Of a stretch of DNA of 7,989 nt, positions 1 to 6,963 are shown in pieces (positions within the stretch are counted from its first letter, which is position 1; each line of letters opens with the position of its first letter). The stretch is taken from IMG/VR virus record IMGVR_UViG_3300029878_000067; one strand, written 5' to 3'. Below the pieces are notes generated by a model. That model made no database searches. It was not told where the DNA came from and was given only the letters and a program-made list of their open reading frames with translations. The DNA comes from a virus (taxonomy: Duplodnaviria > Heunggongvirae > Uroviricota > Caudoviricetes). The translations under genes and the position numbers were made by a program.

Positions 1-2234
<2,234 letters not shown>

Positions 2235-2291
2235 TCATGCTCCATAAACGACAAAACCGCCCGCAGGCGGTTTCACATAAAACGTTTTTCA

Positions 2292-2471
2292 TCAACGACC
2301 AATCACCACAACCTGACCACCGTCCCCCTCGTCTGCCGTGCTGATCTCCTGAGAAGCCACCCGCGACCCCACGCGCATTTCACCGTACAGAACAGGCAGA
2401 ACATTGCCCTGGGCAACCATGTTATCCAGTGAGGAGAAATAGGTGTTCTGCTTACGCAGCTCTGCTGTCAC
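2292..2471 (-). pseudogene. I: Remnant: first ~6 codons of head protease/scaffold gene C (GTG start at 2471..2469) fused in frame to the C-terminal ~53 codons of tail assembly protein I
   Basis: Seen in sequence: minus-strand reading from GTG gives V/M-TAELR then KQNTYFSSLDNMVAQGNVLPVLYGEMRVGSRVASQEISTADEGDGGQVVVIGR and a stop. Established knowledge: TAELR is the start of lambda gpC and the remainder is the gpI C-terminus. Junction at about 2452 with AA microhomology. The 104-aa ORF in the track (2292..2606) reads out of frame through B sequence for its N-terminal half. Confidence 0.75.
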
Positions 2472-2751
2472 TCTTCTCCTCCTCTGTTGATTGTCGCAGT
2501 CCGGATTCAAATGCCGCAGCCGCCCAGGCGGGCGGTTTAAGACCGGCTGCACGGCGCTCCATCGTTTCACGGACCTGCTGGGCAAAAATTTCCTGATAGT
2601 CGTCACCGCGTTTCGCGCACTCTTTCTCGTAGGTGCTCAGTCCGGCTTCTATCAGCATCACCGCTTCCTGAACTTCTTTCAGACCATCGATGGCCATACG
2701 ACCGGAGCCTATCCAGTCGCAGTTCCCCCAGGCACTGCGGGCTTCCTGAAA
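2452..2751 (-). pseudogene. B: Portal protein B remnant, C-terminal ~99 codons only
   Basis: Seen in sequence: minus-strand frame gives FQEARSAWGNCDWIGSGRMAIDGLKEVQEAVMLIEAGLSTYEKECAKRGDDYQEIFAQQVRETMERRAAGLKPPAWAAAAFESGLRQSTEEEKSDSRAA then TAA at 2454..2452. Established knowledge: matches the remembered C-terminus of lambda gpB. No upstream portal sequence is present; the fragment abuts terminase A sequence out of frame at about 2751. Confidence 0.8.
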
Positions 2752-3533
2752 ACCCCGTTTTTGTTTCGCTTACGTGGCATGCTGGCCACCGGCTTTCCGT
2801 AGACGGATGCCCCTTTAATGGGGATCACCCGGAACAGCCCATGTTTTTTCGAGCGTTCATACACAATGGTCGGGTCAATCCCGCCAGTATCCCAGCAGAT
2901 ACGGGATACCGACATCTCTGCACCATTCCGGCGGGTATAGGTTTTATTGATGGCCTCATCCACACGCAGCAGCGTCTGTTCATCGTCGTGGCGGCCCATA
3001 ATAATCTGCCGGTCAATCAGCCAGCTTTCCTCACCCGGCCCCCATCCCCATACGCGCATTTCGTAGCGATCCAGCTGGGAGTCGATACCGGCGGTCAGGT
3101 AAGCCACACGGTCAGGAACGGACGCTGAATAATGCTCTTTCCGCTCTGCCATCACTTCAGCATCCGGACGTTCGCCGATTTTCGCTTCCCACGTCTCACC
3201 GAGCGTGGTGTTCACGAAGGTTTTACGTTTTCCCGTAAGGGTGTTGCGCTGCTTATGCTCTATGAAGTAGGCATAAACACCCAGCAGCATTTTGGAATAA
3301 CCGACACGGGCANNNNNNNNNNNNNNNNNNNNNNNNNNNNNNNNNNNNNNNNNNNNNNNNNNNNNNNNNNNNNNNNNNNNNCAGCGCCCTTCCTGGTATG
3401 CGGATTCTTTCGGGAGATAGTAACTGGCATCCGCCCATTCAACGGCAGTCTGTGGCTCCGGCCTGAACAGGGCTCGCAGCCCGGCGCGTACATCACGCCG
3501 CAGAATATCAATCTGACTGTTCGATATATTCAC
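2709..3533 (-). pseudogene. A: Terminase large subunit A remnant: N-terminal ~99 codons joined to a C-terminal nuclease-domain segment, then fused out of frame to the B remnant; contains a 69-nt N-run
   Basis: Seen in sequence: translation [15 protein letters not shown]...ARVGYSKMLLGVYAYFIEHKQRNTL is followed directly by TGKRKTFVNTTLGETWEAKIGERPDAEVMAERKEHYSA...MPRKRNKNGV. Established knowledge: in lambda gpA these two blocks are separated by roughly 300 residues (ATPase-domain region), so there is an internal deletion at about 3236. After KNGV the frame runs into B-derived DNA and stops at 2709. The start overlaps Nu1 by 26 nt as in lambda. Confidence 0.85.
3313..3381. other. Run of 69 ambiguous bases (N): assembly gap or masked segment inside the terminase A remnant
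   Basis: Directly visible in the sequence; appears as X residues in three ORF-track translations. Confidence 0.97.
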
Positions 3534-4053
3534 TCAGCAACCCCGGTATCAGTTCATCCAGCGCGGCTGCTTTGTTCATGGCTTTGATGATATCCCGTTT
3601 CAGGAAATCAACATGTCGGTTTTCCAGTTCCGGAAAACGCCGCTGTACCGAGAGAGGGATCCCGTCAAGAATACTGGCAATTTCACCTGCGATCCGTGAC
3701 AGCACGAAAGTACAGAATGCGGTTTCCACCACCTCTGCGGAGTCTCTGGCATTCTTCAGCTCCTGTGCGTCGGCCTGCGCACGCGTAAGTCGATGGCGTT
3801 CGTACTCAATAGTCCCAGGCTGGAGATCTGCCTCACTGGCAGCCCTGTAATCCACAACCTCTTTACGGAGTTTTTCATTTTCGATATCAGCTTCCCTCTG
3901 CGCATACCACTGAATTGCCATGGCGGTATCAAATACAGATTCAACGCCCTTACCACCTCCGGAGACGCAAGGGAGTCCCTGAGACTGCCAGCGTTCAATC
4001 GTTCGCGGATCCACGTTGAAAATTTCGGCAAGTTTCTTTTTATTAACCTTCAT
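3508..4053 (-). CDS. Nu1: Terminase small subunit Nu1 (181 aa), apparently intact
   Basis: ORF-track protein [36 protein letters not shown]... The C-terminal ~100 residues ([60 protein letters not shown]...LSEYIEQS) match my recollection of lambda gpNu1 nearly exactly; the N-terminal DNA-binding region is similar but diverged. Lies cos-proximal with a 26-nt overlap onto the A start, as in lambda. Confidence 0.9.
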
Positions 4054-4080
4054 GAAACAGTCTCACAATAAATACAGGGG

Positions 4081-4190
4081 CCGACATGAAAGTGCCCGAA
4101 AATGACTTTTTTAGGCGTTTTCATGTCGGACCTTTTACGGATTCGATATTAGAAAAAACAAATAGTTATGTTCGAGAAGTACCGACATGA
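4081..4190 (-). promoter_or_regulatory. cosB: three copies of a CCGACATGA-core repeat (4081..4089 direct, 4121..4129 inverted, 4182..4190 direct) with an AT-rich A-tract spacer (about 4141..4175) between the cosN-proximal pair; candidate Nu1 binding sites R3/R2/R1 with a bend/IHF-type site
   Basis: Seen in sequence: GCCGACATGAAAGTG, TTTTCATGTCGGACC (reverse complement TCCGACATGAAAA) and ACCGACATGATTTTC. Inference: the arrangement resembles the multi-R-site cosB architecture of lambdoid phages; site identity is not lambda-like, consistent with the diverged Nu1 N-terminus. Confidence 0.5.
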
Positions 4191-4229
4191 TTTTCCCCGG
4201 AAAATTTTCATAAATAGCGAAAACCCGCG

Positions 4230-4241
4230 AGGTCGCCGCCC
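4230..4241 (-). other. cosN: cosN 12-nt cohesive-end sequence (GGGCGGCGACCT on the minus strand)
   Basis: Exact 12-mer AGGTCGCCGCCC on the plus strand at 4230..4241, embedded in lambda-like flanks, about 177 bp from the Nu1 start codon (lambda spacing is about 179). Confidence 0.85.
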
Positions 4242-4464
4242 CGTAACCTGTCGGATCGCCGGAAAGGACCCGCCAACGACTTTCGCGTGCAGGCATTAAA
4301 AATTTTGCAGTTCCATGCCTAGTTGAAACCTCGATTTCTATAACATCCAATTTTGTAAATTTAGATATAGCTCAACTTTTCCCAATGTTTTCAAGTGTAT
4401 AAAAACAATTGGCGTTACGCCATAACACTATACTTAGGATAAGTAAAGATTTTAAGGAGTTTTA

Positions 4465-5532
4465 ATGAGTCAACATCAATATTACCCACAGCTGAAATGG
4501 AAGCCTGCTGAATATGAATCTCTGATGCTTTTAGATCAAACTACGCTCTCTGGTTTTACTCCGATCATTACCATTCCAGACATAGACTGGGATTATGAAA
4601 ACGAATGCTACAAGAAGAGTTTGAGTTCTTACTTATCTGACTTCGGTATTAACCTTGCGGCATCCTGGAAAGCCAATCGTCCTGTTTTGCTGGATGTTAA
4701 ATATTTAGATAAACATGGTTCGAGCCGCCATCATCCTCTAGATATGTGTATCCAAGATGCTAGAGTAAATGGTAAGGAAATTATCCCTGTTGTCTCTCCC
4801 GCATATTCAACAAACTATATACATGCTGTTCAACGCAACTTAATCAATGGGCTCGCTATATCTATCACCCCCCAGACATGGCACCAATTCACAAGTCTGG
4901 TTAACCACTTAAATATTCATCCTAGTTTAATTGATGTAATCATTGATTTTGGAGATATTCAAAACGCAACTGATAGTTTAAAACAACAAGCATTAAGCAT
5001 GGTCAACACATTATCAGGCCAAGCTCCGTGGAGAAACTTGATTTTATCTTCAACCGCATACCCTGCATCACAGGCAGGGATACCGCAACATCAAGTTCAT
5101 CATATTCCGCGCCATGAATACGATCTTTGGATGTATGTAGTACAGAATTTTAGCAATGGAAGAACGCCAAGTTTTAGTGATTATCCCACCGCTAGCTCTA
5201 CCATTACGAGCGTAGACCCACGCTTCATGTCTCAGTATGTCTCAGTGAGATATTCGAACGATACCTCATGGATCTTTGTAAAAGGTACCGCAGTTAAAGG
5301 AAATGGATGGGGCCAAACTAAAAACTTATGTACTACCCTTGTTAGTTCGCCAGAGTATCAAGTCTTTGGCTCCAAATTTAGTTGGGGGGATGATTACATT
5401 TACCAAAGATCATTAGGCGCTAACAAATCTGGCGGCTCTAAAGAATGGCGTAAAGTTGCACATACGCACCATATTACGTTAGTCGTGAGACAGCTTTATT
5501 GGTTGGCGCAGACTCAGCCTGCCAAGCCTTAA
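4465..5532 (+). CDS. Hypothetical protein, 355 aa, AT-rich cargo gene; function unknown
   Basis: Seen in sequence: long ORF with a perfect AAGGAG at 4454..4459, 5 nt before the ATG; GC content visibly lower than the flanking phage genes (by eye, not computed); AT-rich upstream region with -10-like hexamers (TATAAA 4398..4403, TATACT 4429..4434). Protein begins MSQHQYYPQLKWKPAEYESL; no nucleotide-binding or catalytic motif that I can assign with confidence. Confidence 0.72.
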   Translation: MSQHQYYPQLKWKPAEYESLMLLDQTTLSGFTPIITIPDIDWDYENECYKKSLSSYLSDFGINLAASWKANRPVLLDVKYLDKHGSSRHHPLDMCIQDARVNGKEIIPVVSPAYSTNYIHAVQRNLINGLAISITPQTWHQFTSLVNHLNIHPSLIDVIIDFGDIQNATDSLKQQALSMVNTLSGQAPWRNLILSSTAYPASQAGIPQHQVHHIPRHEYDLWMYVVQNFSNGRTPSFSDYPTASSTITSVDPRFMSQYVSVRYSNDTSWIFVKGTAVKGNGWGQTKNLCTTLVSSPEYQVFGSKFSWGDDYIYQRSLGANKSGGSKEWRKVAHTHHITLVVRQLYWLAQTQPAKP

Positions 5533-6094
5533 CTTTCCAGCCTACGCGTTTCTTTAAGGCTGTTCTGACTTCAAGCCTGAGATTCGCTATTGGAATATTT
5601 TCCGCAATAATATTCCATAACTCAAATCGGGGCTTGCTTTTGATTCCTTTGGAATAGCCCCATCGTTCAAGTACGTCGATACATTCATCTTTCCAAAGCA
5701 ATTGAGCGAGCATCAATGAGTTATGGTTTCGATTAAGCTTTTCTCCACGCATGTGCTTTATAAGAATGGCGCCTTTTGGCCCAACAGAAACCGTTTTAAC
5801 GCCCCACCAACCTGGGATTAACTTTAATGCTCCCTCAAGATGTTTCTCAGCTACGACAAGAGTAACCTTGTCCATTACAGAAGAATAATGCTTGATTTGA
5901 AGAGGCAAACGCTCCAAAGAGTCATATTCACTTTTGAGCTCGTACCCGTGTATAACACCATTTATTACAGCAATGTCTGCTCTACTGGCGCCAAGGGATA
6001 TGGAAAATTCATCGACCACAAGGCAGTCAGGATCTAAATGCGATTCTTTCAAAAGCTTATGATGCACCGCGAACCTAACATCTTGATCTTTCAT
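5474..6094 (-). CDS. Hypothetical protein, 206 aa, with a PD-(D/E)xK nuclease-like motif; AT-rich cargo gene
   Basis: Seen in sequence: ORF with AAGGAG (plus-strand CTCCTT at 6100..6105) 5 nt before the ATG. Protein contains LVVDEF ... SRADIAVING ... HGYELKSEYD, i.e. an acidic residue, then D, then E-x-K about 11 residues later, in an alternating strand/helix context. Inference: this is the signature of restriction-endonuclease-like folds. Convergent with, and overlapping by 59 nt, the 355-aa gene. Confidence 0.7.
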   Translation of the reverse strand: MKDQDVRFAVHHKLLKESHLDPDCLVVDEFSISLGASRADIAVINGVIHGYELKSEYDSLERLPLQIKHYSSVMDKVTLVVAEKHLEGALKLIPGWWGVKTVSVGPKGAILIKHMRGEKLNRNHNSLMLAQLLWKDECIDVLERWGYSKGIKSKPRFELWNIIAENIPIANLRLEVRTALKKRVGWKVKAWQAESAPTNKAVSRLT

Positions 6095-6122
6095 GACTTC
6101 TCCTTACTCCCTCCGTTACTGA

Positions 6123-6128
6123 ATTATA
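6123..6128 (-). promoter_or_regulatory. Candidate -10 hexamer (perfect TATAAT on the minus strand) about 30 nt upstream of the 206-aa gene start
   Basis: Plus-strand ATTATA at 6123..6128 is TATAAT on the minus strand; no good -35 match at 16..18 bp spacing; an adjacent tandem repeat occupies the -35 zone. Confidence 0.3.
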
Positions 6129-6132
6129 GCGC

Positions 6133-6151
6133 ACTGCATTTTACTGCATTT
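6133..6151. repeat. Tandem direct repeat ACTGCATTT x2 with 10-bp periodicity, immediately upstream of the candidate -10 of the 206-aa gene
   Basis: Plus strand reads CACTGCATTT TACTGCATTT at 6132..6151; one helical turn apart; located where a -35 element or activator/repressor site would sit. Confidence 0.5.
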
Positions 6152-6445
6152 GAGAGATTTGACCACTTCAATCACAAAATGCTTATCTGCAGCAACAAGA
6201 TTCATAGCCATACGACTATGGTGATTACCTTTTGTCTGGAAAACTGACCATTCCACGAAGATCAGATAGGTCTATAGAATCTTGGTTTGTCATAGCGTTC
6301 GCCTTACTTTGAGATGAACCTTTGCTGCATAGGAGATCAGCCCGTCAAGGCTCACCAGCACTAACTGACTACTCAAAGGCTCATTCCAAAGGGTTTGGTT
6401 CGACGTGGTTGAGTGCGCTGCGGTGCGCGGTGAAATACCTGTACA

Positions 6446-6473
6446 AAAATGCCCCGCATCTGCGAGGCATTTT
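6446..6473 (-). terminator. Terminator-like hairpin about 38 bp downstream of Rz, flanked by an A-run and a T-run (potentially bidirectional)
   Basis: Seen in sequence: AAAAATGCCCCGCATCTGCGAGGCATTTTCC. GCC/GGC and CGC/GCG pair around an ATCT loop with A-T extension; on the minus strand the stem is followed by TTTTTGTAC (5 U), on the plus strand by TTTTCC (4 U). No folding energy was computed. Confidence 0.42.
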
Positions 6474-6510
6474 CCTGAAAGTCACTTGTTAAATTTCAGT
6501 GAAATTAAAA

Positions 6511-6963
6511 TTATTTTAAGCACTGCGTCCTGATGTACTCCTGCAAGTAGTTAACCTGCGCGGTTATCTTGTCGATTCCACTTCGGAGACGGTAATAATT
6601 GAGTTCAGCATCTGCTGTAAGTCCTGGGCTTTCTCCATTGCCCATGCCGCTGGCTCCGGTCGTTGACTTTGCACAGGTGGCGGCGACTTGCAGGCGCTTA
6701 CGCCCAACAGAAACATCAGCACGTAGACTTTCGATAGTCGCGTTAGCATCAGCAAGCTCCTTTGTGTATCTTGCGTCGAGTTCTGCTACATCACGTTGAC
6801 GCTTCCGCATGTCAGCGATGATGTACGTGGCTTTATCGCGCTGTTCTTTATAGGTAATGGCATTATCACGGTAATGATTAACAGCCCATGACAGGCAGAC
6901 GATGATGCAGATAACCAGAGCATAAATAATCGCGGCGACTCTGCTCACTGATCTATCCCCCAA
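6511..6963 (-). CDS. Rz: Spanin inner-membrane subunit Rz (i-spanin), 150 aa
   Basis: Protein has an N-terminal TM segment [30 protein letters not shown] and a coiled-coil-like remainder; closely resembles remembered lambda Rz; sits immediately downstream of the endolysin with a 19-nt overlap. Confidence 0.85.
6564..6755 (-). CDS. Rz1: Spanin outer-membrane lipoprotein subunit Rz1 (o-spanin), embedded in the +1 frame of Rz
   Basis: ORF entirely inside Rz in another frame; signal-peptide-like N-terminus with lipobox-like VSAC followed by a proline-rich segment [16 protein letters not shown], the typical Rz1 architecture. The true start could be an internal Met. Confidence 0.72.

Follow-up and report, generated by a model that had tools for sequence, protein, structure and literature searches.

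A convergent pair of genes in the late region of an Escherichia coli lambdoid prophage, coding for a Beta-family protein and an sce7726/P4-cII-family protein, probably forms a prophage-borne defence module with a PD-(D/E)xK protein as effector and the TIM-barrel protein Beta as sensor or activator. The pair lies in a stretch of 7,989 nucleotides from IMG/VR virus record IMGVR_UViG_3300029878_000067 (Caudoviricetes), called here the window, in which the late region is read on the minus strand. The original prediction, made from the sequence without database searches, described an AT-rich cargo of two uncharacterised genes and a candidate anti-phage system. The latter idea gains support from homology to the gop-beta-cII locus of P4 and to gene C of PD-lambda-2. 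The label of uncharacterised holds at most in part: RefSeq names both genes, PADLOC holds both families as parts of published systems, and beta-cII itself belongs to one of these. The features that define the cassette are as follows.

4465-5532, plus strand: beta gene, 355 amino acids, ATG start (open reading frame call); Beta family, predicted to fold as a TIM barrel plus a helical/hairpin subdomain at the C terminus
5474-6094, minus strand: sce7726/P4-cII-family gene, 206 amino acids, ATG start (open reading frame call)
5474-5532: the coding regions overlap antiparallel at their 3' ends by 59 bp (from the open reading frame coordinates)
4454-4459, plus strand: AAGGAG ribosome-binding site of beta, 5 nt before the ATG at 4465 (read from the sequence)
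6100-6105, minus strand: AAGGAG ribosome-binding site of sce7726 (CTCCTT on the plus strand), 5 nt before the ATG at 6094-6092 (read from the sequence)
4452-6186: mobile two-gene unit, a block of 74-76% nucleotide identity (blastn against L004-L007 and L112-L117; L and H numbers are those of the loci and records in this analysis)

Both open reading frames (ORFs) are intact and convergent. As had been noticed, they occupy an AT-rich island, which spans about 2 kb between cosN and Rz, with a GC content of 0.34-0.44 over positions ~4200-6300 and of 0.50-0.63 in the phage genes on either side, and an AAGGAG does stand 5 nt before each ATG. Judging by substitution rates, both are real genes under strong purifying selection: the ratio of non-synonymous to synonymous substitutions (dN/dS) is ~0.04-0.07 for each against orthologues in four other genera, a comparison in which dS is saturated.

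The 355-amino-acid protein, at first thought to carry no assignable motif, matches Pfam Beta_protein (PF14350) with an E value of 8e-56 and 190.4 bits (cut-off 27) over nearly its full length (residues 6-342 on profile positions 1-342 of 342), and the identical RefSeq protein bears the name 'beta family protein'. It is also matched by the PADLOC PD-Lambda-2_C models (PDLC03984, E 4.4e-32, residues 141-344; PDLC03983, E 2.2e-25) and by the PADLOC 'beta' model (E 3.5e-10). Its predicted structure (pLDDT, a per-residue confidence measure, 96.6; pTM 0.93) is an alternating beta/alpha TIM barrel followed by a C-terminal hairpin/helical subdomain. Across 75 diverse Beta proteins, D77, D161, R216, D239/Y240, R262/Y263, D309, R329 and H335/H336 are invariant or nearly so, and several of the invariant polar residues are found at the C-terminal ends of predicted strands, where the active sites of TIM barrels lie. 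This placement in the model suggests that Beta acts as an enzyme or binds a ligand, and is not a passive antitoxin. At 50% identity, this large family divides into 3782 clusters, and PHROGs assigns both window proteins to families of unknown function. Of the families named in the original prediction, Beta_protein and sce7726 were recovered and sce7725 was not. An sce7725 identity for the 355-amino-acid protein was ruled out, as no sce7725 match was obtained up to an E value of 1; six other Beta proteins, including the one from Sorangium, likewise gave none up to E 0.01. NCBIfam presumably holds an sce7725 model (NF033831). Among the NCBIfam models, none except sce7726_fam passed its threshold for the pair.

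The 206-amino-acid protein belongs to the NCBIfam family sce7726_fam (NF033832; E 3e-54, 183.7 bits, cut-off 70), with residues 1-183 aligned to profile positions 1-182 of 184. Its homologues carry the precomputed Pfam assignment PF26915 (Phage_P4_cII), and the PADLOC 'cll' model matches it with an E value of 3e-31. The PD-(D/E)xK signature noted at the outset is borne out by the invariance of E29, D40, E52 and K54 (E52-x-K54) in an alignment of 36 homologues and by a restriction-endonuclease-like predicted fold. In the AlphaFold2 model (pLDDT 89), an N-terminal alpha/beta PD-(D/E)xK domain (~1-120) is followed by a helical C-terminal domain (126-182) and a disordered tail (192-206). Motif and modelled fold mark the protein as a PD-(D/E)xK nuclease of predicted activity whose catalytic motif is intact. 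Core fold and motif arrangement are shared with the PD-(D/E)xK effectors of defence systems, with MmcB-like/SPO1766 (PDB 3dnx), Can2 and NucS, and with type II restriction enzymes, although no sequence relationship to the solved structures is detectable; profile searches found no solved relative of either window protein. Unlike other PD-(D/E)xK effectors, sce7726 has a helical C-terminal domain of its own in place of a CARF/SAVED or other known sensor domain, and its obligatory partner is a TIM barrel.

The pairing of the two genes is deeply conserved. A scan of one genome per species with an sce7726 alignment yielded 80 loci from Proteobacteria, Bacillota, Myxococcota, Bacteroidota, Acidobacteriota, Elusimicrobiota, Armatimonadota, Melainabacteria and several candidate-phyla-radiation lineages. 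A convergent Beta gene lies immediately downstream of sce7726 in 77 of them; two of the three exceptions are at contig ends, and the third (L010) has adequate flanking sequence and no Beta. The 3' ends overlap in 75 of the 77 pairs, by a median of 50 bp (range 11-158 bp), and every one of the 75 overlap lengths is 2 modulo 3 (L004-L083 and the window). Consequently, one fixed antiparallel phase, in which codon position 1 lies opposite position 1, is kept across phyla, and it differs from the usual 'shadow ORF' phase. All four distant Beta representatives inspected also have a convergent PF26915 partner, with Gabija, BREX, helix-turn-helix (HTH) plus M78, or transposon genes as neighbours. A universal third partner was sought by neighbour clustering and a Pfam scan of 128 neighbours and was rejected, the commonest neighbour being Peptidase_M78, in 12.

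Some phage genomes show this arrangement as well: Escherichia phage Rac-SA53, Gordonia phages DumpsterDude and Powerball, and Mycolicibacterium phage Mycofy1. Rac-SA53 (L003, KU052037.1 15680-17315) represents a second E. coli prophage lineage of the pair (also L132-L161), with proteins 53% and 30% identical to those of the window; it resides in the nin region next to IS1 and hok/mok, lacks gop, and is common among the E. coli prophage contigs of IMG/VR. In DumpsterDude, the sce7726 homologue (MT024859.1 28666-29280; L173 2501-3115, plus strand; 43% identity, 99% query cover, E 2e-42) is unannotated in GenBank, where a 71-amino-acid gene 32 is called on the opposite strand instead. The convergent Beta homologue is gene 33, a 'hypothetical protein', and the pair comes just after the lysis genes.

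That the two genes move together, as had been proposed, is evident both from the 77 convergent pairs and from a block common to the window and to Edwardsiella, Klebsiella, Pantoea and Pectobacterium, with 74-76% nucleotide identity by blastn. The block runs from the beta ribosome-binding site (~4452) to ~60-90 bp upstream of sce7726 (~6151-6186), and these shared limits mark 4452-6186 as a mobile unit. Its carriers include prophages, defence islands and other mobile elements, between which the pair travels. Within E. coli, 127 of 5426 complete genomes (2.3%) carry the cassette with an identity of at least 99.3%. The slot holds other cargo elsewhere: in the related phage IdasGreatGrand, the space between Rz and Nu1 is filled by a rha antirepressor gene and a hypothetical gene. 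Positions 6222-6290 of the window (minus strand) are homologous to the Rz-rha intergenic region of IdasGreatGrand and P22; the homology ends at the rha start codon (window ~6286-6288), after which the sequences diverge and a stop follows after 22 codons. From this alignment, rha seems to have given way to the cassette, beginning at the rha start codon.

The closest described counterpart is the gop-beta-cII locus of satellite P4 ('gop_beta_cll' in DefenseFinder/PADLOC), which confers protection from lambda and P1 and is not needed for P4 growth (Rousset 2022, PMC9122126), and whose toxicity is triggered by the phage accessory gene orf184 (Silas et al., bioRxiv 10.1101/2023.04.06.535777). In P4 the order is cos, gop (247-648, plus strand), beta (651-1718, plus strand) and cII (1746-2540, minus strand), so that both elements share a convergent beta-cII layout adjoining cos, with beta on the cos side, as well as the status of cargo in a variable slot. 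Beta has 355 amino acids in both, with 22% identity (BLASTP E 3e-07), and the Beta profile matches P4 beta at E 2.1e-19. P4 cII is 26% identical to the 206-amino-acid protein (BLASTP E 4e-19), carries the same E...D...ExK motif and, at 151.4 bits, scores above the sce7726_fam cut-off. The two loci differ in several respects: cII has 264 amino acids in P4 and 206 in the window; the 3' ends are 27 bp apart in P4, with an annotated terminator in the gap, whereas those in the window overlap by 59 bp without a terminator-like structure; and the host element is a satellite in one case and a lambdoid prophage in the other. The main difference is gop. Gop has 133 amino acids and, read from its translation, two hydrophobic, probably membrane-spanning segments before a charged, possibly coiled-coil tail. 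A gop-like third gene in the window was rejected: no plus-strand ORF of at least 40 codons lies between cos and beta (4299-4465), and a phmmer search with P4 Gop, covering the window ORFs and the loci collected up to then, returned only the P4 gene itself. The locus thus has a beta homologue and a convergent cII homologue and lacks gop, and is therefore not filed as a gop-beta-cII member. We read it as a gop-less minimal variant of the gop-beta-cII kind, carried as a moron in the Rz-cos slot.

A second relative is PD-lambda-2, which consists of a HigB-like protein A, an Xre-HTH/M78-peptidase protein B and a P4-beta-like protein C, the last being required for defence and not for toxin neutralisation (Vassallo 2022, PMC9519451). 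The 355-amino-acid protein is the counterpart of C, as its PADLOC PD-Lambda-2_C matches indicate. No gene A (HigB-like) or B (Xre/M78) was found in the window, where no ORF lies upstream of beta; their presence in 12 further loci shows that such genes could be detected, and given their absence here the locus is not filed as PD-lambda-2. In those 12 of the 77 loci (L040, L047, L054, L055, for example at 5542-8129, L058, L064, L068, L072, L074, L076, L077 and L082), a HigB - HTH/M78 peptidase - Beta operon with Beta last faces a convergent sce7726. The published system comprises three genes, and its clone (ECOR42, QOYB01000002 228989-232396) ends 396 bp past gene C, too short for a whole sce7726 gene.

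With these relatives in view, an anti-phage function of the abortive-infection type appears the most likely role for the gop-less pair. The nuclease would act as effector, cutting phage and/or host nucleic acid, and Beta, as an enzyme or ligand binder, would license the nuclease on infection instead of restraining a lethal toxin as an antitoxin. Other lineages would add toxins to the same core, Gop in P4 and HigB with an Xre-M78 peptidase in PD-lambda-2.

A classical toxin-antitoxin or addiction module, in which sce7726 is a constitutive toxin that Beta neutralises (or the reverse) and which would mainly stabilise the prophage instead of defending, would share the tight linkage and mobility of the pair, and convergent overlapping transcripts could provide it with antisense control. 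In P4, gop and beta are a likely toxin-antitoxin pair according to Rousset et al. (PMC9122126), and PD-lambda-2 is toxin-antitoxin-like (PMC9519451), although its Beta-like protein is not the antitoxin. Natural beta knock-outs with an intact sce7726 argue against the simple picture of a nuclease toxin held by a Beta antitoxin. Insertion sequences (IS) have entered beta as IS1 (NMBU-W12E19), IS5 (100416), IS1 (1532MA and 1532WA) and an IS3-family element (2013C-3181), and beta is split once more in strain RM10410 (records L174 NZ_CP042892.1, L175 NZ_CM128593.1, L176 NZ_CM129638.1, H112 NZ_CP027312.1 and H157 NZ_CP042350.1). These disruptions fall in at least four independent E. coli lineages, and the strains keep a wild-type sce7726 protein, identical to WP_000654791.1 or WP_000654790.1. 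No insertion in sce7726 was seen among the ~85 genomes listed; five disruptions in beta (1068 bp) against none in sce7726 (621 bp) are not significant alone (p ~0.1). At the level of the allele sequences, loss of Beta is thus tolerated, which argues against Beta as the essential antitoxin of a constitutively lethal nuclease. The alleles also fit the PD-lambda-2 result, where the Beta-like component serves defence and not neutralisation. The toxin-antitoxin explanation is accordingly rated unlikely. In the same set of records, CUVET17-972 carries IS2 between cos and an intact beta, and L177 (NZ_CP115370.1) is listed alongside the disruption records.

A function for the phage itself, such as a lysogeny/lysis decision factor or a late nuclease that degrades host DNA and is limited by Beta in the lysogen, is suggested by the position of sce7726 on the same strand as the late lysis genes and directly downstream of them, so that by analogy with lambda a Q-antiterminated late transcript would express it. 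P4 cII is said to have been named for a lysogenisation phenotype. The DumpsterDude pair follows lysis genes too, and sce7726-like genes occur in gene runs of phages Mx4 and Edson and in 241 Staphylococcus phage records. However, the pair is also found outside prophages, beside Gabija, BREX and transposon genes and with unrelated neighbours in genomes of many phyla; the E. coli slot takes variable cargo, such as rha in the related phage; and the P4 locus protects against other phages while P4 grows without it. This explanation appears quite improbable. Lower still is the probability of a restriction-modification-like pair, in which Beta, for example as a DpdA/TGT-like base exchanger, would mark self DNA and sce7726 would cut unmarked DNA: no specific feature of the structures supports it, and the beta::IS alleles weaken it too.

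Several observations also weigh against a defence module with a nuclease effector and a Beta sensor. Defence is suggested by homology to P4 at just 22-26% identity, and anti-phage activity has been shown solely for the P4 locus with its three genes. That the nuclease acts as effector is assumed, since the documented P4 toxin is Gop, which is absent here. The PD-lambda-2 clone, without a full sce7726 gene, implies that Beta-type proteins can act without this nuclease, and fold comparison of the Beta model returns only generic TIM barrels, which give no indication of its chemistry. Conversely, distant sce7726-like nucleases (27-33% identity) without a convergent Beta are embedded in co-directional phage gene runs of Myxococcus phage Mx4 (L171 2492-3061) and Bacillus phage Edson (L172 2435-3028), with related matches in the Staphylococcus records mentioned above, so that the sce7726 family is not exclusively defensive; the nuclease family extends beyond the Beta-linked module and may serve other purposes in phages. 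A regulatory role of the 3' overlap is a conjecture, and four pairs (P4, L008, L011 and L169) do not overlap. Nor are promoters established. The original prediction gave each gene its own promoter region, which the consensus scan did not bear out, with one site for the 206-amino-acid gene and none for the 355-amino-acid gene; promoter-like sites were fewer than in shuffled sequence (3 versus 5.4), and sigma-70 promoters were not significant.

The surroundings of the cassette are those expected of a lambdoid late region, and the slot between cos and Rz is as first described, by the positions of cosN and Rz and by the annotation of NZ_AP022105.1. Positions 4054-6510 are identical (100%) to that record, in which the gene order is terminase small subunit, beta family protein, sce7726 family protein, lysis protein and lysozyme, within a complete lambda-like prophage adjoining ompW. 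The remaining features of the region are listed here.

3508-4053, minus strand: Nu1 (open reading frame call)
4230-4241, minus strand: cosN 12-nt cohesive end AGGTCGCCGCCC, the reverse complement of GGGCGGCGACCT (read from the sequence)
4410-4422: perfect 13-bp palindrome TGGCGTTACGCCA in the beta leader (read from the sequence)
6138-6165, minus strand: promoter-like site TGGTCA-16-TAAAAT upstream of sce7726 (consensus scan; not significant alone)
~6445-6470, minus strand: terminator-like stem-loop with U-run downstream of Rz (by eye; the terminator scan did not flag it)
6511-6963, minus strand: Rz (open reading frame call; RefSeq has a shorter 438-nt lysis gene with the same stop)

The cosN end lies 224 nt from the beta ATG. 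Flanked by a candidate -10 element, TATAAA (4398-4403), on one side and by the ribosome-binding site of beta on the other, the palindrome was flagged as terminator-like on the minus strand by the terminator scan. It is not part of the block shared with other genera and may serve either as an operator or as a terminator of antisense transcripts. The promoter-like site at 6138-6165 falls within the conserved block, and the stem-loop downstream of Rz is conserved in phage IdasGreatGrand, as seen in the alignment columns. The 3' overlap shows no sign of a terminator or of structured RNA, with folding z-scores of ~0 on both strands. As there is no terminator between beta and sce7726, the transcript of either gene must continue into its neighbour in antisense, and such mutual antisense transcripts might provide a built-in transcriptional or antisense control. 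During lytic growth of the prophage, a Q-antiterminated late transcript would, by analogy with lambda, read sce7726 in sense and beta in antisense.

In lambda, bor points against late transcription, and the beta gene has the same orientation. The cassette further resembles lambda bor and the morons of the Rz-cos slot in its lambdoid position, its AT-richness and its apparently own expression signals. In contrast to these, its proteins are unrelated and form a conserved two-gene module that is also found outside lambdoid phages.

To the left of Nu1, positions 1-3400 of the window lose colinearity with the prophage of NZ_AP022105.1, which is otherwise near-identical. This part juxtaposes blocks that match gpJ/tail genes, the junction of portal and protease, and two internal segments of the large terminase, with junctions at ~2452, ~2750 and ~3236 and with ~10.8 kb, 1.9 kb and 0.7 kb missing between the blocks; a run of 69 N occupies 3313-3381. 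Two origins are conceivable: a prophage made defective by extensive deletion, or a sequence that is composite or masked.

In the literature searched, no stand-alone beta-cII or sce7726 system was found beyond the P4 and PD-lambda-2 papers (mentions of sce7726 seemed, by title, to come from genome reports). Likewise, beta-cII (without gop) as a conserved core across phyla, the near-universal convergent and phase-locked 3' overlap, and the common pairing of PD-lambda-2-type operons with sce7726 were not found described there. Current detectors probably miss the beta-cII core, because the P4-type rule appears to require gop. A bolder possibility, put forward tentatively and held to be doubtful, is that the pair constitutes an ancient, self-sufficient immune core present in a dozen or more phyla, in which a TIM-barrel sensor or enzyme of unrecognised type and a PD-(D/E)xK effector are tied by a convergent, phase-locked overlap within the control circuit. 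Gop or the HigB/Xre-M78 toxins would then be interchangeable additions, and P4 and PD-lambda-2 decorated versions of the bare module.

The E. coli cassette offers a favourable test case: it is a near-invariant 1.7-kb unit, present in the 2.3% of complete E. coli genomes noted above, in a well-understood lambdoid prophage, with clear catalytic residues and natural beta::IS alleles. Should it confer no defence, the pair would be an ordinary annotated moron. If the bare pair defends alone, P4 gop-beta-cII and PD-lambda-2 would become variants of one widespread core, and the finding would bear on the role of a TIM-barrel protein in immunity and on a conserved convergent overlap as a regulatory device.

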